NCBI GenBank assembly: GCA_902800325.1
Contig: CADCDW010000003.1
Coordinates: 13,452 to 77,451, forward strand
Source of the DNA: an uncultured Lachnospiraceae bacterium
GTDB lineage: Bacteria > Bacillota > Clostridia > Lachnospirales > Lachnospiraceae
Direction: 5' to 3'
Length of the DNA: 64,000 nt
Made by a program: the position numbers and the translations under genes. Positions 26,115-62,496 of the stretch are shown here, piece after piece; positions within the stretch are counted from its first letter, which is position 1; each line of letters begins with the position of its first letter. The notes below the pieces were generated by a model. That model searched no databases. It was not told the DNA's origin and saw only the letters and a list, made by a program, of their open reading frames with translations.

Positions 26115-27278
26115 TTACATTTTTTCCCTTATTATATCGGTAATTCTTATACCAAAGCTTTCTTCTATAACTACAACCTCGCCTTTTGCAACCAGTTTTT
26201 GATTTACTATAACATCAATCGGTTCGCCGGCAAGCCTGTTAAGTTCTATTATTGTTCCGGGTGCAAACTCAAGAATTTCTTTAATTGACTTCTTAGTTCG
26301 ACCAAGTACAACTGATACATCAAGCGGAACATCCATAATCAAATCTATATTTTCCTGCTGAAGCACAGGATTAGGCATAGGATTAAATGCTTTAAACTGC
26401 ACATTTTGAACATTTACATCCTGCCCCATCATCGGCTGGCTCATCATCTGTTGCCCCATCATCGGTTGTCCCATCATCGGCTGTGGTACAGGCTGTGGTG
26501 TCGGTTGTGGTACAGGCTGTGGTGCCGGTTGTGGTGCCGGTTGAGGCTGTGGTGCCGGTTGAGGCTGTGGTGCCGGTTGAGGCGCCGGTGTTTCCTCTTC
26601 TCCACTTGAAAACTTTTTATATAAATCCTTAGCAAGATTTATAGGATAAAGTTGCATTATAGTACTATCAACCAAATCACCTATAGTCATCCTGAAAGTT
26701 ACATTTACAAATTCGCCATTTATGAAATTTGATATCTTAGCCGGATCAATATTACCGGCCATATCTATAAGTTCTGCCTCAGGCGGGCTGATATCCACCT
26801 TACAATTAAGCATTGATGAAAGTGAAGTGGCAGAAGAACCCATCATCTGATTCATTGCTTCACAAATTGCACTAATATGCAAATCCGTTAGTTCAGGAGA
26901 AGGATTAAGTCCATCGCCACCCATCATCAAGTCTGTGATTACTTTAACATCTTCTTCCTTAAGAATCAATACATTATTTCCATCAATACCCTCTTTATAA
27001 TTTATATTGATAAAAACACAAGGTCTTGCATATTCTTTTGTCATACTGTCCCATGTTGTTACTTCAACAACCGGGGTGGTTATTACAACCTTTTGATTAA
27101 CCAAGGAATAAAGGGTAGTTGCCGCTGTACCCATACATATGTTGGATATCTCACCTATTGCATCCTTTTCATCTGAACTGAGATCTCCGCCTCCGCCAGA
27201 CGATGCACTATCCGAAGAACCCGCACCCATGTCTCCAAGTAATGCGTTTATCTCTTCCTGTGATAACATGCCATCCAT
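26115..27278 (-). CDS. fliY: Flagellar switch phosphatase FliY (CheC-like plus FliN domain)
   Basis: DAIGEISNICMG and SAICEAMNQMMG CheC motifs, Pro/Gln linker, C-terminal NIDLIMDVPLDVSVVLG...GEVVV FliN domain. Confidence 0.95.
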   Translation of the reverse strand: MDGMLSQEEINALLGDMGAGSSDSASSGGGGDLSSDEKDAIGEISNICMGTAATTLYSLVNQKVVITTPVVEVTTWDSMTKEYARPCVFININYKEGIDGNNVLILKEEDVKVITDLMMGGDGLNPSPELTDLHISAICEAMNQMMGSSATSLSSMLNCKVDISPPEAELIDMAGNIDPAKISNFINGEFVNVTFRMTIGDLVDSTIMQLYPINLAKDLYKKFSSGEEETPAPQPAPQPQPAPQPQPAPQPAPQPVPQPTPQPVPQPMMGQPMMGQQMMSQPMMGQDVNVQNVQFKAFNPMPNPVLQQENIDLIMDVPLDVSVVLGRTKKSIKEILEFAPGTIIELNRLAGEPIDVIVNQKLVAKGEVVVIEESFGIRITDIIREKM

Positions 27279-48654: not shown

Positions 48655-48692
48655 CGGCATCTCTTCACATAAAACACTTATATAATTATATG

Positions 48693-48766
48693 CCGTATTA
48701 ATAAAATAAAGAATAACATTATATCAATTCCGTATTAATAAAATATAGAATAAAATTATATCAATT
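48693..48766. repeat. 37-bp tandem duplication (35/37 identical) covering the stop of the GerW-like gene
   Basis: CCGTATTAATAAAATA(A/T)AGAATAA(C/A)ATTATATCAATT at 48693-48729 and 48730-48766. Confidence 0.85.
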
Positions 48767-53682: not shown

Positions 53683-56600
53683 ATGAACAGATTAGGAATT
53701 GATATAGGTTCAACCACAGTAAAGGTTGCAATTATAGATGAATCACACAATATACTTTTTTCTGAATACAAGAGACATTTTGCCAATATCAAGGAAACAT
53801 TAAAGGAACTACTTGAAAATGCAAAAGAAAAGCTTGGCGATTTAAATGTAGCCCCAACCATAACCGGTTCAGGCGGACTTGCTCTTGCCAATGTCATAGG
53901 TGTACCATTTGAGCAGGAAGTTATCTGCGTAACCGACGCACTAAAGGACTATGCTCCTCAAACTGATGTTGCTATAGAACTTGGTGGTGAGGATGCAAAA
54001 ATTATATATTTTACGAACGGTGTCGAGCAGCGTATGAACGGAGTATGTGCAGGAGGTACCGGTTCCTTTATCGATCAGATGGCATCACTTCTTCAAACAG
54101 ATGCCATGGGACTTAATACATATGCCAGAGACTATGACACTATCTATCCAATTGCCGCAAGATGTGGTGTATTTGCCAAAACAGATATACAGCCACTCAT
54201 AAATGAAGGTGCAACCAAGCCAAACCTTGCCGCATCAATCTTTCAGGCAGTCGTCAATCAGACCATAAGTGGTCTTGCCTGCGGTAAACCTATAAAGGGA
54301 AATGTTGCTTTTCTTGGTGGTCCTCTTCATTTTCTGGATCAGCTTAAGGAAGCTTTTATAAGAACTCTTAATTTAACTGATGACAGTGTAATCGCACCAT
54401 CACATTCACACCTTTTTGCTGCTGTAGGTGCTGCACTTCAGGCCAAAGAAGATATTAATTTTTCTCTCACTGATTTAAGCGGGAAGCTGACTGATGATCT
54501 AAAGTTTTCAGTTGATGTAGACAGACTTCCTCCACTTTTTGCTTCTGAGGAAGATTACGCCAAATTCATCAAAAAGCAGTCAAAATACCATGTTAAAAGA
54601 GCTGACCTTGCTACATACAAAGGCAAATGTTATCTTGGCGTAGATGCAGGTTCAACCACAACTAAGGTTGCTCTGGTCGGCGAAGACGGAGCATTATTAT
54701 ATGATTTTTACAGCAGTAACAACGGTAGTCCTTTAAAAACCACTATCCGCGCCTTAAAGGATATATTTAAAAAGCTTCCGGATGGTGTTGAAATCGCATC
54801 AGCATGTTCAACCGGATATGGAGAAGCTTTGATTAAATCTGCTCTTATGCTTGATCATGGCGAGGTTGAAACCATAGCCCACTATACCGCTGCTGCTTTC
54901 TTTGATCCTGATGTGGATTGTATCCTTGATATAGGTGGTCAGGATATGAAATGTATAAAAATTAAAAACGAAGTAGTTGACAACGTTATGCTCAACGAAG
55001 CATGTTCTTCAGGCTGTGGTTCATTTATAGAAACCTTTGCAAAATCATTAAATTATGAAATCAAGGATTTTGCCAAAATAGCTCTTTTTGCAGAACATCC
55101 TATAGACCTCGGTTCAAGATGTACTGTATTTATGAATTCAAAGGTTAAACAGGCTCAAAAAGAAGGTGCATCCGTAGCCGATATATCTGCCGGACTTGCA
55201 TATTCGGTTATAAAAAATGCGCTTCTTAAAGTTATAAAACTTACCGACCCTAAATCACTCGGTAAAAATATAGTTGTTCAGGGCGGAACTTTTTATAACG
55301 ATGCAGTACTAAGAAGCTTTGAACTTATATCCGGCCGCGAAGCCATACGTCCGGATATAGCAGGTATCATGGGTGCATTTGGAGCCGCTCTTATCGCAAG
55401 AGACAGATATGAAGAAGGCGCAAAGACGACCATGCTTTCCCGCGAGGATATAGAAAACCTTACATATGAAACCAGCATGGCGAGATGTAAAGGCTGTACC
55501 AACAATTGTCTTCTTACCATCAATAAATTTTCAGGCGGAAGACGTTTTATTTCAGGAAACAGATGCGAAAAAGGTCTTGGCTTGAAGAAAAATGCCAACA
55601 ATGTACCTAATTTATTTGAATATAAATTCAACCGTTTATTCCGGTATGAACCATTAAGTGAAGCCGAAGCCTCTCGTGGAACAATCGGAGTACCAAGAGT
55701 ACTCAATATGTACGAAAACTATCCGTTCTGGTTTACATTTTTAACCAGGCTCGGTTACAGGGTCGTACTCTCTCCAAAATCCTCTCGTGATATCTATACA
55801 CTTGGTATAGAGTCCATTCCAAGCGAGTCAGAGTGTTATCCTGCAAAAATTGCACACGGTCATGTTATGTGGTTACTCAAGCAGGGAATCAAGACAATTT
55901 TCTATCCTTGTATACCATATGAAAGAAACGAAACACCGGATGCTAACAATCACTACAACTGTCCTATCGTTACTTCATATGCAGAAAATATTAAAAATAA
56001 TATGGAAGAATTAAGTGATCCTGATACAACCTATATAAGACCGTTTCTTTCTCTCGACAACAAGCAGGCGCTTAAAGAACGTCTGATGCGAGAATTTAAG
56101 AAATATACTGATGTAACCATGCAGGAGATATCCGATGCGGTCGATGCAGCTTATATAGAAGCAGATGCAGTGAAAGCCGATATTAAAAACAAGGGTGATG
56201 AAACTATTAAGTACCTGGAAGAAAATGATAAAATCGGTATAGTACTTGCCGGTCGTCCTTATCACATAGACCCTGAGATTAACCACGGTCTTCCTGAACT
56301 TATCAATTCATTTGATATAGCTGTGCTTACTGAAGATTCTGTGGCTCACTTAGGTGAAGTAGAAAGGCCTCTTATAGTATCAGATCAGTGGATGTATCAC
56401 TCCAGACTATACAAAGCCGCAAACTATGTAAAGACGAGCAAAAATCTTGAACTTATACAGCTCAACTCTTTCGGTTGCGGTCTTGACGCCGTTACAACCG
56501 ATTGTGTAAATGATATACTTACCAATTCAGGCAAAATTTATACGGTACTTAAGATAGACGAGGTCAGCAACTTAGGTGCTGCAAGAATACGTATACGTTC

Positions 56601-57915
56601 TTTGATAAGTGCTGTAAATGTAAGACGTAAACGCCACTTTGTTCCTTGCCCTGTATCAAGCGCAATCAACAGAGTTGAATTTACCCAGGACATGAAGGAC
56701 TACACTGTTCTTGTACCTCAGATGTCTCCTATTCATTTCAATATTCTTGAACCGGCATTTAGCCAAATGGGGCTTAATATAGTTATGCTTCCTGACGCTA
56801 ACAAGGAAGTTGTTGACACAGGATTAAAATATGTAAATAATGATGCATGCTACCCTTCACTTATAGTAGTCGGACAGCTTATGTATGCTATCAATTCAGG
56901 AAAATATGATGTAAATAAGCTTGCAGTTGTTATGACTCAGACCGGCGGCGGTTGCCGAGCTACCAATTATGTTGGTTTTATAAGACGTGCGCTCGCAAAA
57001 GCCGGTTACGGGCAGATACCTGTTATAGCTCTAAGTGTTCAGGGTTTTGAACAAAACTCCGGCTTTAAATTTACGATTAAAACAGTCAAGCTTGCTTTAC
57101 AGGCTATTATATATGGTGATTTATTTATGAGAGTCTTATACCGAACAAGACCTTATGAAAAAGTTAAAGGCTCTGCCGATAAACTTCACAAGAAATGGGA
57201 AAAAATTTGTATAAAGAGTATTAAAGATGGTGGTCGAGGATACAAAAAAATTATCAAGGGTATCATTCATGACTTTGACACTCTTCCTCTTAACGAAGAA
57301 GAAAGACGTCCACGTGTAGGAATAGTTGGTGAAATTCTTGTCAAGTTCCTTCCTTCGGCTAACAATCACCTTGTTGAGCTTCTCGAATCAGAAGGTGCTG
57401 AAGCAGTTATGCCTGATTTACTTGATTTCTTCATGTACTGCTTCTACAACAACAATTACAAGTATGAATTCTTAGGCAAATCCAAGAGTTCCGCCAAAAA
57501 GGCCAATCTTGGTATATGGGCACTGGAAGTTCTTCGTAAACCTTTACGCGATGAACTCAGAAAGAGCAACCGTTTTGAACCACCTGTACATATAACCACG
57601 CTTGCAGATTATGCCAGACCTATCGTATCAATCGGCAACCAGACAGGAGAAGGCTGGTTCTTAACCGGTGAAATGGTTGAACTTATCAAGAGTGGTGCCG
57701 GCAACATAGTATGTTGTCAGCCATTTGCATGTCTTCCTAACCACATAGTCGGCAAGGGTGTTATCAAAGAATTAAGGAAATCATATCCTGAAGCCAACAT
57801 CGTAGCAATAGACTACGATCCGGGTGCTTCCGAAGTAAATCAGGTCAACCGTATCAAACTCATGCTTGCAACTGCGCGCAAAAACATGCAGAACACCGAT
57901 GAAAAAGCTGTATAA
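53683..57915 (+). CDS. 2-hydroxyacyl-CoA dehydratase activase-related multidomain protein (two BadF/BadG ASKHA ATPase modules plus DUF2229-like modules)
   Basis: [10 protein letters not shown] and [10 protein letters not shown]; ELGGEDAK and DIGGQDMK; [10 protein letters not shown] and NEACSSGCG Fe-S Cys motifs; [15 protein letters not shown]. Confidence 0.9.
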
Positions 57916-57931
57916 TCCCCTCTCCCACGTT

Positions 57932-58621
57932 AAACTTCGGTTTCACGCATGATGACAGACATAGATATTCCTTTTATCAGTAGATTTAATTCTCTTATGT
58001 GACATCAAAGAAAAAAGGTGGTATTACAACGCGCCATCGATTTGTTAAATCAGCGTACTCGCACCTTTGAAATTCGCACGAACCCGAAGAACTCGCTTCG
58101 CTCAAACACTTCGGTTTCTGAGCGAATTTCTACAAGTGCTCGTTGCTGATTTGACACAAATCGGGCTAAATGTTGTAACACCGCCTTTTTCTTTTTCTGT
58201 CACTATAAATTTTCGGACAATCTCCTGATAAAAGGAATATCTATGCCTGTAGCTTAAAGCCACGCTAAATAGCGCGGCTTTAAGCTGTGGGTATCTGCTT
58301 TACCACTTAAATACAACTTCACACCTTAATAAACTAAATTCAGGAAAGTATATGAAAAGGCTGATACAACAACATTTTGTCCGATTTGCGTTAAATCAAA
58401 AGCAAGAATCCGTATATATTCGCTCAGAAATCGAGCTGTTTGAGCGAAGCGAGTTCTCGATTTCGTGCGAAGATAAAGGATTTGAGCTTATTGATTTAGC
58501 AAATTGATGACACGTTGTGTATCAGCCTTATTCATATACTTTCCTATTAAGAAACTTCATGGTGTGAAGTCATATTTAAGTGGTAAGCAGATACCCACCA
58601 TCATGCGTGAAACCGAAGTTT
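57932..58621. repeat. 690-bp composite palindromic element: 23-bp terminal IR enclosing two long hairpin units and a central hairpin
   Basis: Perfect IR at 57932-57954/58599-58621; unit A 57955-58250; central hairpin 58251-58286; unit B 58287-58598; identical 20-nt core at 58089-58108 (+) and 58437-58456 (-); no ORF in the track. Confidence 0.9.
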
Positions 58622-58638
58622 GATGCGATGGACAAGGA

Positions 58639-59931
58639 CTAATTTTTCTTTCCGAGTTTTACTACAATTGTATCCTCTACATATTCGTTGTCTTTCATAT
58701 ATTTTACAGTTACTTCTATTTTTTCACCGGCTTTGTAATATTCAAGCATATCCACAAGACCTTCAGCCGTAGATACTGTCTGACCGTCAAATTTTGTTAT
58801 GATGTAGTTTTTCTTTATGCCAGCTTTTTGGGCTGCAGAACCGTCTATTACCTCTGATACGAGGACTCCGGTAGGGATACCATATAACTCTGATGCATCA
58901 GCGGTGACAGTGCCGCATTTGATACCGAGACTTGCCTGATCGCGTTCATCAACCTTTTCTCTGGTTTTTCTTGAAACCATACCGTCGATTATTTCCTCAA
59001 CCTCACTTATAGGAATAGCATAGCCCATTCCCTCAACTTCTGTTGAAGCATATTTCGATGAATTGATACCAACAAGTTCTCCCTTCATATTGAGCAGTGC
59101 ACCACCGCTGTTTCCCGGATTTATGGCCGCATCAGTTTGGATAAGCGGTAAATCATTAGTATCGGTCGTTCTTTCTTTTGCACTTACGATACCTGTTGTA
59201 ACGGACTGTCCATAGCCAAGTGCATTACCTATAGCTACTACCTGCTCTCCAACCTTAAGTTCATTGGAATCACCTATGTTGGCTACTTTTATATTTTCTT
59301 TAGTACTACCCGAAATATCTTCAAGAGGAACTACCACTATAGCCAGATCATAACTTGAATCAACACTTTTAACTTTTGCATCATAGCTTTCACCGTCATT
59401 AAAAACTACAGAAACAGTCTCTGCCGATGCTACAACATGATTATTGGTTACAATTAAAAGTTCAGTATCATTTTTTCCTATGATAATACCGGAGCCTGCT
59501 CCTTCAGTCTCATATTCGTATGTTCCGAACATCCCCTGGTTTATCTGCTCAACACCTTTTACGTTTATCGCAACTATAGATGGCATTACATTTTCAGCAA
59601 TTTTTGAAACATCAAGAGCGCCACCCGATGCATAATTATTATCAACTGATGATGTTGTCTGGATTATCTCATCGGTTGTCGTTTTTTCGTCATCATTATT
59701 AGCTTTTGATTCTGTTGTTTCAACATCTGCAGTTTCTAAACCTTCCAATGTTTCACTAACAATCTTGCTTATATTCTTCTTCTCATTTACACCGTTTAGC
59801 TTATCCGCTGCAACAAGATTAAATACTCCTCCAGCTACGCCTCCAAATACTGCTGCTGTTGTAACTACCGCTACAGTTCTCTTAAAAAATCCGCCTTTTT
59901 TGCTTGTTTTCATTTCTGTCTCATGTTTCAT
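58639..59931 (-). CDS. htrA: HtrA/DegP-family serine protease with PDZ domain
   Basis: VTNNHVV (His), YDLAIV (Asp), AINPGNSGG (Ser), C-terminal PDZ, N-terminal TM anchor. Confidence 0.95.
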   Translation of the reverse strand: MKHETEMKTSKKGGFFKRTVAVVTTAAVFGGVAGGVFNLVAADKLNGVNEKKNISKIVSETLEGLETADVETTESKANNDDEKTTTDEIIQTTSSVDNNYASGGALDVSKIAENVMPSIVAINVKGVEQINQGMFGTYEYETEGAGSGIIIGKNDTELLIVTNNHVVASAETVSVVFNDGESYDAKVKSVDSSYDLAIVVVPLEDISGSTKENIKVANIGDSNELKVGEQVVAIGNALGYGQSVTTGIVSAKERTTDTNDLPLIQTDAAINPGNSGGALLNMKGELVGINSSKYASTEVEGMGYAIPISEVEEIIDGMVSRKTREKVDERDQASLGIKCGTVTADASELYGIPTGVLVSEVIDGSAAQKAGIKKNYIITKFDGQTVSTAEGLVDMLEYYKAGEKIEVTVKYMKDNEYVEDTIVVKLGKKN

Positions 59932-61254: not shown

Positions 61255-62496
61255 TTATGCCAACTTAAATAGTTCCTTAAGTAAGTCTTCTTTAAGTTCA
61301 CTTCCTATTACGCAAAGCTTACCTGTATAATCAGGTTTTCCGTCTCTTATCTCATATTCTCCCGGTACAAGATCAAAATATATCCAATCAGAGCCTGTAC
61401 TTGCAACTATACCTTTAGCTCTCAATATAACTCCATATTTATCCGATTCATACGCAAGAACTTCAAGTATTTCTTTCATTTCATCCTTGTCATATTTCTT
61501 GGCAGTTTCAAGTCCCCAACTGCTAAATATATCATCTGCATGATGGTGGTGATGATCATGGTCATGATGATGACAGCCACAAGTACATCCTTCTCCATGT
61601 TCATGATGATGTTCATCCTCGTCATGGTCGTGATGATGATGCTCATCCTCGTCATGGTCGTGATGATGATGCTCATCCTCGTCATGGTCGTGGTGATGAT
61701 GCTCATCCTCGTCATGGTCGTGGTGATGATGCTCATCCTCGTCATGGTCGTGATGATGTTCATCCTCGTCATGGCCGTGGTGATGATGCTCATCCTCGTC
61801 ATGGTCGTGGTGATGATGCTCATCCTCGTCATGGTCGTGGTGGTGATGCTCATGCTCTTCGTGTAATTTTTTAGCCTGTTCTATAAGAGCCTCAAGCGTA
61901 TTTGCATGCTCCATGGCATCAAGTATTACCTTACCATCTATATCATCCCAAGGTGTTGTAATAATTGCACAATCCTTGTTATGTTCTCTTAACAGTGCAA
62001 CCGTATCGCTTATCTTCTTTTCATCAACATTCTGTGTACGGCTTAAAACGATAGTTCCCGCGCTCTCAACCTGATTATTAAAAAACTCACCGAAGTTTTT
62101 CATATACATCTTACACTTTTGTACATCAACGACAGTTGTTGCACTGTTTATAACCACATCAGCATGTTCTTTAACATCTTCGACAGCTTTCATAACATCT
62201 GAGAGCTTTCCGACTCCTGATGGTTCTATTATAACTCTGTCAGGCGCAAATTCATCTATAACCTTCTTTAAAGCCTCACCAAAATCGCCTACAAGAGAAC
62301 AACATATACATCCGGAATTCATCTCTGTAATTTCAACTCCGGCTTCTTTAAGAAATCCTCCGTCAATTCCTATCTCACCAAATTCATTTTCAATTAACAC
62401 AAGCTTTTCACCTGAAAACGCCTGGTCAATAAGTTTTTTAATAAGAGTTGTCTTACCTGCACCCAAAAAACCTGATAATATATCTATCTTTGTCAT
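61255..62496 (-). CDS. CobW/COG0523 metallochaperone GTPase with a His-rich insert
   Basis: SGFLGAGKTT, ENEFGEIGIDG, GCICC (CxCC), IEPSG, C-terminal ILRAKGIV...LCVIG. Confidence 0.93.
   Translation of the reverse strand: MTKIDILSGFLGAGKTTLIKKLIDQAFSGEKLVLIENEFGEIGIDGGFLKEAGVEITEMNSGCICCSLVGDFGEALKKVIDEFAPDRVIIEPSGVGKLSDVMKAVEDVKEHADVVINSATTVVDVQKCKMYMKNFGEFFNNQVESAGTIVLSRTQNVDEKKISDTVALLREHNKDCAIITTPWDDIDGKVILDAMEHANTLEALIEQAKKLHEEHEHHHHDHDEDEHHHHDHDEDEHHHHGHDEDEHHHDHDEDEHHHHDHDEDEHHHHDHDEDEHHHHDHDEDEHHHHDHDEDEHHHEHGEGCTCGCHHHDHDHHHHHADDIFSSWGLETAKKYDKDEMKEILEVLAYESDKYGVILRAKGIVASTGSDWIYFDLVPGEYEIRDGKPDYTGKLCVIGSELKEDLLKELFKLA
61612..61848. repeat. 30-bp coding tandem repeat, 8 copies (HHHHDHDEDE)
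   Basis: CATCCTCGTCATGG recurs at a 30-bp period, with one 27-bp unit. Confidence 0.95.

Follow-up and report, generated by a model that had tools for sequence, protein, structure and literature searches.

The locus and its 690-nt element

The window, i.e. the whole 64-kb stretch of DNA that was analysed, belongs to a rumen Lachnospiraceae MAG. Its GC skew is -0.21 and its genes lie almost all on the - strand, from which the - strand is taken as the leading strand. The sole long gene on the + strand, a BcrAD_BadFG and DUF2229 fusion, converges with an HtrA-like serine protease gene, and at this only convergent gene junction of the window the gap is occupied by a 690-nt element (57932-58621) with 16 and 17 nt left to the two stop codons, just as an earlier sequence-only reading had described a nearly filled gap. 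The genes and features are:

53683-57915, + strand: BcrAD_BadFG + DUF2229 fusion gene, 1410 aa, CoA-enzyme activase / dehydratase-like
57932-57954, no strand: outer inverted repeat, left arm, AAACTTCGGTTTCACGCATGATG, 23/23 complementary to 58599-58621
57955-58250, + strand: unit A, a self-complementary M-loop repeat of 296 nt (M: + strand; M': - strand)
58089-58108, + strand: M loop of unit A, GAACTCGCTTCGCTCAAACA, at a hairpin apex; this 20-mer is identical in many phyla
58118-58123, + strand: CTGAGC internal-loop motif, 9 nt 3' of M in unit A
58251-58286, no strand: central hairpin of 36 nt, with 17-nt arms, one mismatch and a loop of 2-4 nt
58287-58598, - strand: unit B, a self-complementary M-loop repeat of 312 nt (M: - strand; M': + strand)
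58342-58545, - strand: unit B core, the multi-copy part, with the terminal inverted repeat AGGAAAGTATATGAA / TTCATATACTTTCCT
58437-58456, - strand: M loop of unit B; the + strand reads M' = TGTTTGAGCGAAGCGAGTTC
58599-58621, no strand: right arm of the outer inverted repeat, pairing 23/23 with 57932-57954
58639-59931, - strand: HtrA-like serine protease gene, 430 aa, Trypsin_2 + PDZ, convergent with the BcrAD_BadFG/DUF2229 gene

Complementarity analysis bore out the boundaries that the sequence-only reading had assigned to the outer repeat, unit A, the central hairpin and unit B. The outer arms of unit A (32 nt) are 94% complementary, those of unit B consist of a 14-nt stretch at 100% and a 26-nt stretch at 92% complementarity, and the terminal repeats of the unit B core (15 nt) are perfect. 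The best alignment of the two units was A(+) against B(-), where 75% of the central 114 nt are identical; at the sequence level units A and B are diverged tail-to-tail (oppositely oriented) copies of one hairpin repeat. The element is thus a composite in which an older intergenic palindrome encloses units A and B and the small central hairpin. The homology of A and B was missed by the earlier reading, from which the cross-phylum invariance of the 20-nt loop could not be seen.

The minimum-free-energy fold places the four helices end to end, with zero unpaired linker bases between them. The + strand folds at -337.9 kcal/mol with RNA parameters, against -151.8 +/- 6.2 for shuffles (z -30.1), and the - strand at -354.7 kcal/mol with RNA parameters (z -24.4) and -216.2 kcal/mol with DNA parameters (z -26.2), in confirmation of the linker-free four-way fold proposed previously. 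The single strand adopts this gapless junction since each unit pairs better with itself than with its partner, A and B being only about 75% alike. A strain variant, 58262 A>G, mends the sole mismatch of the central hairpin. This hairpin has no T-run 3' of it and is not a canonical terminator; no terminator-like site was found on either strand within 57700-58850, and promoter or terminator signals did not rise above chance in the window.

The ORFs inside the element span 43-53 aa only and are mirrored between the two strands. The claim that no transposase accompanies the element held, as none was seen near it and no transposase-sized candidate stood out among the genes of the 64-kb window. A further copy of the repeat was not found elsewhere in the window. 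The heptamer GTTAAAC, which matches GTTRRRY, abuts the left end of the element.

Assemblies, orthologous loci and arrangement of the repeats

The same intergenic sequence was recovered with 0-1 substitutions in 8 loci of independent ENA, NCBI and Logan rumen assemblies, and DNA contigs of six further public runs span the element, which upholds the sequence against the concern of an assembly artefact. In several rumen metagenomes the DNA depth of the unit B core and of the M region of unit A was 5-8x that of the flanks, and loose contig ends at 58342 and 58542 run into other flanking sequences in several runs. The raised depth together with the differing flanks indicates that the M-loop family is multi-copy in that rumen community. 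Target duplication is not visible at 58342 / 58545, where the other copies of the unit B core are known only as loose ends, and neither an empty-site allele nor a target duplication nor exact element ends were recovered. A metagenome scan for near relatives of A and B returned just the window's own locus and one single unit (L145).

An orthologous locus (L143), with an HtrA 77% identical and an identical gene order, has an intergenic gap of 394 nt. It retains the outer palindrome with the arm ATACTCCGGTTTCCCGCATGA and compensating changes on both arms, and the repeat extends there over ~27-35 bp. It holds one A-like unit (75% identical to unit A) and one arm of the outer shell of unit B, and is without the central hairpin and the unit B core. 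As this relative has the outer palindrome and a single unit, the four-way junction is, on comparison of the two loci, specific to the window's lineage. The contigs of three other relatives end just past HtrA, which is the expected effect of a repeat at that spot. In Variovorax a doublet of units folds into a single long hairpin, not a junction, because its two units are nearly identical. The pairing itself is maintained by two-arm changes, between species and across phyla. The sequence-only reading had taken the four-way junction as the object of selection, and here it found no backing in either the single-unit ortholog or the Variovorax doublet: the junction does not look like the selected unit and reads as a by-product of two diverged self-pairing neighbours.

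Two routes to the present arrangement were considered and set aside. A symmetric insertion of A and B at GATG^AGCT in an 82-nt parental hairpin was unsupported, the locus of the relative having one unit and different junctions, and an origin of unit B from inverted duplication of the target flanks was rejected as other metagenome copies share the ACTTCACACC shell. One RNA-derived contig links the reverse complement of 57932-58140 to 58622 onward; an inversion joint between the 23-bp repeats was absent in the six DNA runs, and this contig is likely a cDNA snap-back artefact.

M-loop units were found as singles, inverted doublets or direct arrays (L058, L051). The doublets are invariably M(+) followed by M(-), 210-380 nt apart, in Variovorax, Polaromonas, Methylophaga and the window; this order was seen in at least 15 loci, and in the window the two loops start at 58089 and 58437. 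Units tend to crown other hairpins, such as the window's outer palindrome, Vibrio attC sites and the terminator-like stem of L145, in whose loop the unit lies. One locus (L102) has a GNAT gene with an M hairpin on either side. Variovorax carries ~10-25 copies per genome as estimated from DNA depth.

The nearest neighbours of most copies are ordinary chromosomal housekeeping genes. A Pfam scan of the 119 nearest ORFs gave 113 families, none of them more than once, and all-against-all BLAST of ORFs within 3 kb returned Variovorax synteny and generic families only. The co-occurring nuclease or transposase that the earlier reading suggested looking for did not emerge, as neither Y1_Tnp nor GIY-YIG recurs among these 119 ORFs. 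Many M matches lie at contig ends; M-loop units break short-read assemblies and also give rise to spurious small ORF calls.

The M loop across bacteria and its probable active strand

The exact 20-mer M was present at a minimum of 120 genome loci from many phyla in a scan of one genome per species (596 Gb), where about one match is expected by chance for a random 20-mer; since an exact match was required, this count under-samples the true variability of the loop. Carriers include Variovorax, Polaromonas, Methylophaga, Vibrio and Pasteurellaceae; those available in culture are Variovorax paradoxus NBRC 15149, Haemophilus parainfluenzae and Butyrivibrio fibrisolvens D1 (plasmid pNP243). M was also found in Flavobacterium, Bacteroidales, Lachnospiraceae and other Clostridia, Nitrospirales, Acidobacteriota, Desulfobacterales, Desulfuromonadales, Gastranaerophilales, and Saccharibacteria and other CPR bacteria. 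No true copy occurred in 5,426 genomes of E. coli, so M is not a universal host signal, and it was not found in typical small plasmids.

M is enclosed by flank-to-flank pairing, as a hairpin apex, in 63/67 dereplicated families, and the sequence and GC content of the stem are unrelated from family to family. In an alignment of 25 sequences 89.8% of the cells of the 9-bp closing stem were paired, compared with 43.9% in shuffles and ~45% when the partner columns were slid, and two-sided changes were present in 110 cells where 35 were expected, a value reached by 0/500 shuffles. A second conserved feature lies in the 3' arm 9-10 bp below the loop and reads CTTAAC, CTGATC or CTAATC (CTGAGC in the window); a motif of the type CTNAWC, at a constant spacing from M, is shared by Bacteroidota, Proteobacteria, Acidobacteriota and Clostridia.

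The covariance models of Rfam 15 gave no match over the M hairpin, at E <= 1 in the window, at the gathering threshold in 18 loci and at E <= 5 in 8 loci. Searches of the full-text literature outside subscription journals for M, M', their RNA forms, the cores and the second block returned chance primer matches only, and the M-loop repeat family appears to be undescribed. We know of no convincing mimicry of conserved rRNA or tRNA segments by the element.

The complement of M, M', reads TGTTTGA-GCGAAGC-GAGTTC with GCGAAGC at its centre. The natural variants of this centre, GCGTAGC, GCGGAGC and GCGCTAGC, all fit the mini-hairpin consensus GCGNAGC/GCGNNAGC. DNA mini-hairpins of this consensus are extraordinarily stable and poorly bound by SSB, and they occur at primase-dependent origins for ssDNA-to-dsDNA conversion in phages G4, St-1 and alpha3 and also in RSF1010 ssiA (PMC13037366). 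Other properties also distinguish the two strands. Arm mismatches on the M strand were 162 A.C against 109 G.T (p = 0.0015), or 34 against 16 by family, an asymmetry of G.T / G.U pairs that does not discriminate DNA from RNA. On their M' strands unit A (- strand) folds 15.7 kcal/mol and unit B (+ strand) 2.4 kcal/mol better. Of 50 co-directional gene contexts, 36 have M' on the sense strand, and M' showed no bias with respect to local GC skew (19 vs 25, p = 0.45); the orientation bias is therefore linked with transcription and less clearly with replication, a point in favour of RNA or the non-template strand. A transcript that reaches a unit of the window or an attC site contains M instead of M'.

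M or degenerate M-like loops top one attC class in Vibrio cassette arrays. The sites of this class are:

L066, 1156-1252, 1721-1817 and from 4951: Vibrio attC sites with M or an M-like loop
L029, 2290-2390: Vibrio attC site with M or an M-like loop

Three Vibrio attC sites have M' on their bottom (folding) strand. In Vibrio filamentous prophages it is the coding strand that bears M', in an inovirus the packaged (+) strand, and M is the final conserved sequence before three different host flanks. The GCGCTAGC variant begins a second phage copy and adjoins rstR in phage VAI2. The non-coding region next to the Vibrio inovirus replication module contains M or its variants, and 19 of the 129 viral loci with M-like sites encode one and the same inovirus Rep. 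The mismatch asymmetry, the sense-strand bias, the mini-hairpin centre and the strand placement in attC sites and prophages all favour M', which appears to be the active strand.

A further module was detected 65-90 nt upstream of M in 14/67 families. It consists of a pyrimidine arm, a loop, a purine arm, a short linker and a second purine tract; it is absent on the right flank and occurred twice in each reverse-strand control. Relative to the first purine tract the second one is a mirror copy in 8 of these 14 families and a direct copy in none, with 6 ties. Mirror repeats of this type could form a putative intramolecular triplex, of the purine motif on the M strand and of the U.A-U / T.A-T pyrimidine motif on the M' strand. 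A 22-nt block of it is identical between Haemophilus and Variovorax, and the window units retain the purine tract only, in long-range pairing with its complement.

Metatranscriptome contigs cover the window element at a depth similar to that of the flanking genes. In four Variovorax RNA assemblies the units reached 10-18x the flank depth in three runs and 300-400x in one, values derived from unstranded contigs in which DNA carry-over is possible; with a DNA copy number of ~10-25, just one of these data sets suggests RNA accumulation.

Interpretation and comparison with known systems

These data show that the window element is made up of two copies of a non-coding hairpin repeat, which is dispersed and keeps an invariant loop, and that an older palindrome surrounds them. 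For its mode of action, we see an even chance that it is a REPIN/BIME-like non-autonomous repeat acting as a folded single strand, probably ssDNA, with M' active. The case for ssDNA comes from the mini-hairpin consensus, from the occurrence in attC sites and inoviruses, and from doublets that resemble those of REPINs. M-loop units would then work as a folded single strand in which the GCGNAGC mini-hairpin of M' nucleates and marks the apex, and a sequence-specific factor acting in trans would read the flanking loop bases and the conserved internal loop 9-10 bp below. The ssDNA could be exposed during replication, transfer, or the ssDNA stages of cassettes or phages, or as the non-template strand. 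Candidate readers are a priming enzyme, or a nuclease or transposase by which the repeat spreads, in the manner of RAYT with REP and Ssn with NTS. With one M' hairpin per strand, a doublet in inverted order would form an orientation-independent site.

As the orientation bias is linked to transcription, an RNA alternative stays serious, and we regard it as possible, with a confidence well short of even, that M' transcripts form long hairpins which stabilise or process neighbouring mRNAs, or become stable small RNAs; in the families with the mirror module, a U.A-U triple helix at the end of the M' strand would keep 3' exonucleases out. This would agree with M' being sense in 36/50 co-directional contexts with no replication-skew bias, with wobble pairs favouring the M' strand, with the fixed distance of the mirror module from M in 14/67 families, and with the metatranscriptome contigs over the window element. 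The Variovorax units, at 10-400x flank depth in RNA against ~10-25 DNA copies, also speak for it, but in three of the four data sets the depth ratio is no higher than the DNA copy number, and the contigs are unstranded with DNA carry-over possible. Besides, no Rfam family matches, promoter and terminator signals are not above chance, GCGNAGC is a DNA-specific stability motif rather than a GNRA or UUCG loop, and a transcript that runs into a unit bears M rather than M', both in the window and in attC sites.

The remaining readings differ widely in weight, and those of a priming signal and of an attC-like site are narrower versions of the ssDNA idea. Priming signals of the G4 oric, ssi, sso or Frpo type, where the M' hairpin excludes SSB and recruits primase, PriA or RNA polymerase and chromosomal copies are relics or domesticated versions of ssDNA mobile elements, appear unlikely. 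The M' consensus is that of known primase-dependent origins and ssiA, and M or its variants sit beside the Vibrio inovirus replication module with the same Rep in 19/129 viral loci; ssoA and Frpo are imperfect hairpins differing between strands, and the units resemble them as strand-different imperfect hairpins of 150-300 nt. However, most copies are chromosomal and lie between housekeeping genes, a replication-strand bias is absent, and the motif is missing in E. coli and typical small plasmids. It is quite improbable that the units are attC-like sites whose folded ssDNA is used by an integron-type or Xer-type tyrosine recombinase: M and M-like loops top one Vibrio attC class, GTTAAAC fits GTTRRRY at the left end of the element and the GNAT gene of L102 lies between two M hairpins, but the window is free of cassette arrays, the units have 2-3 times the length of attC, the base read by eye has no R''/R' or L''/L' box pair, the conserved boxes are near the apex and not the base, and an integrase is absent among the neighbour ORFs. 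We give hardly any credence to an assembly artefact, or to functionless palindromic debris paired merely through arm-to-arm gene conversion. Contigs of several relatives do end at the locus and arm conversion could maintain stem pairing without selection, yet the identical sequence comes from at least 8 independent assemblies and 6 DNA runs, and debris cannot account for an invariant 20-nt loop on unrelated stems across phyla.

Returning to the folded ssDNA repeat, a broader proposal is that the M-loop hairpin represents a pan-bacterial single-strand-active class with an invariant loop and mini-hairpin, an internal loop and, in about a fifth of families, the triplex module, which chromosomal repeats, one attC class and filamentous-phage ends would share via one conserved trans-acting machine. 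We advance this only tentatively; if true, it would link three ssDNA systems by common descent or a common host factor. As a distinct pan-bacterial class, the M-loop family has a real chance. With its loop at the apex of Vibrio attC sites and at the ends of inovirus genomes, the family offers a handle on the origin of attC and on the recognition of ssDNA elements, and the M' hairpin, along with the triplex module if real, could be useful parts for ssDNA technology.

Among the known systems, MITEs (Correia, ERIC, RUP) and the IS200/IS605-derived PATEs are likewise short, non-autonomous, intergenic and structured and can nest in hairpins or terminators, and the window element similarly belongs to multiple dispersed non-coding copies (5-8x depth, differing flanks, mirror-image mini-ORFs only). 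However, a terminal inverted repeat with target duplication was not identified, a parent insertion sequence is not known, and the M-loop family extends beyond one genus. The attC sites are also imperfect hairpins active as a folded bottom strand, one Vibrio class having M' at the bottom-strand apex, whereas the window units are without basal R and L boxes, cassette context and integrase, measure ~300 nt against 57-141 nt, and are conserved at the apex, which is normally the variable part of attC. The ssi/sso origins (G4 oric, RSF1010 ssiA, ssoA, Frpo) share with the M-loop units a long, strand-specific imperfect hairpin with a conserved apical mini-hairpin of the GCGNAGC/GCGNNAGC type, and M is present in ssDNA phage genomes; those signals are single-copy on phage or plasmid replicons, in contrast to the chromosomal, multi-copy and often paired M units.

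The NTS/SRM repeats are oriented hairpins dispersed near genes and read only as ssDNA by the small trans-acting protein Ssn, whose family spans several phyla (PMC11893778). The M-loop units are oriented and dispersed alike, but SRMs are 20-50 nt long with a conserved 5' flank, lie beside the GIY-YIG gene ssn and co-vary with it, and the identity of the NTS loop is non-essential (PMC11893778), where that of M is the invariant part; no GIY-YIG gene was present among the 119 ORFs neighbouring M-loop units. With REP/REPIN/BIME repeats, mobilised by RAYT (TnpA_REP, HUH Y1), the units share that they are non-coding extragenic palindromes in multiple copies, arranged as singles, inverted doublets (as in the window) or clusters, that most copies have no linked gene and that they are thought to be read as folded ssDNA by a trans factor. 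No RAYT was found in the 64-kb window and Y1_Tnp did not recur among the 119 neighbour ORFs. REP units measure 20-40 nt against 150-310 nt for M-loop units (296 and 312 in the window), the M-loop alignments have no GTAG/GTGG head and their conserved block is the 20-nt apical loop. The earlier proposal of selection on a folded single strand of a REPIN/BIME/MITE-like non-autonomous element fits the data, without the size and head that define REP/REPIN. REP, BIME, MITE and NTS repeats are normally species- or genus-specific through co-evolution with their own transposase or nuclease. Against the species-specific sequences of REP, the M loop is letter-perfect from Firmicutes to CPR bacteria while its stems have fully changed, which implies either that the reader is very conserved or that the element is unusually promiscuous.

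Mini-ORFs, a possible inversion and other repeats in the window

In publicly available annotations of metagenomes, a 51-aa ORF within unit B of the element (57932-58621) is listed as a gene (58352-58507). No Pfam hit was obtained for it, and equivalent mini-ORFs occur on both strands of units A and B. The 51-aa ORF probably arises as a side effect of the palindromic sequence. In the metatranscriptome run X28, one contig carried the reverse complement of 57932-58140 fused directly to 58622-58784, the junction that an inversion of the sequence enclosed by the 23-bp repeats would produce. An inversion-type joint at 57932/58622 was absent from six DNA runs, and the joint in the X28 contig could have arisen either artefactually, by cDNA snap-back, or through an inversion that occurs rarely. 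The window also contained other repeats:

61536-61893, tandem repeat of 30-nt period, inside ORF 61255-62496 (- strand)
26422-26591, repeats of 12/15-nt period, inside ORF 26115-27278 (- strand)
48690-48763, direct duplication of 37 nt, in an intergenic spacer

M at filamentous prophage ends and in a satellite

M, the 20-nt apical loop of units A and B, or its GCGCTAGC variant, forms the exact terminus of Vibrio filamentous (Zot-encoding) prophages, and the ends at M or GCGCTAGC adjoin three different host flanks. The loci concerned, with the related phage VAI2, are:

L128, 6426-12260 and 4276-4295
L124-L130 and L147-L160
L144 (phage VAI2)

In VAI2, the GCGCTAGC variant lies beside rstR, and ~480 nt separate it from the published attP, a dif-like site. 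In locus L152, copies of a 3.1-kb inovirus-like satellite encoding Rep are arranged in tandem, with four M-variant sites spaced 3114-3116 nt apart:

L152 1256, 4370, 7484 and 10600, - strand, M-variant sites

Arrays and a possible composite in other MAGs

In a Flavobacterium MAG (L051 5300-6900), long arrays of 20-21-nt period consist of CTTCTGTRA followed by 11-12 variable nt within a 62-nt super-unit. After each array come an M hairpin and a TTACTTTTTT/AAAAAAGTAA hairpin. M units of ~245-315 nt are arranged in direct tandem in a GC-rich ruminal Lachnospiraceae MAG (L058 440-1422):

L058 621, 864 and 1179, all + strand, M sites

In another Lachnospiraceae MAG (L008 940-2451), a variant of M on the + strand lies 1.5 kb from an M(-) site, the interval contains no ORF of at least 100 aa, and this locus may be a long non-coding composite.

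Vibrio attC sites and a cassette-like layout

Among the attC sites of Vibrio integrons, one class carries M or a degenerate M-like loop, such as ACTGTGGAGCGAAGCGAAACT, at the apex, and the remaining attC sites of the same arrays lack it:

L066 1156-1252, 1721-1817 and 4951-5050, attC with M or M-like apex
L029 2290-2390, attC with M or M-like apex
L071 around 6511, attC with M or M-like apex

In a Holophagales MAG (L102 2887-3790), M(+) and M(-) hairpins lie on either side of one ORF:

L102 3074-3517, - strand, GNAT acetyltransferase ORF

With the GNAT ORF placed between the two hairpins, the layout of L102 is similar to that of a gene cassette.
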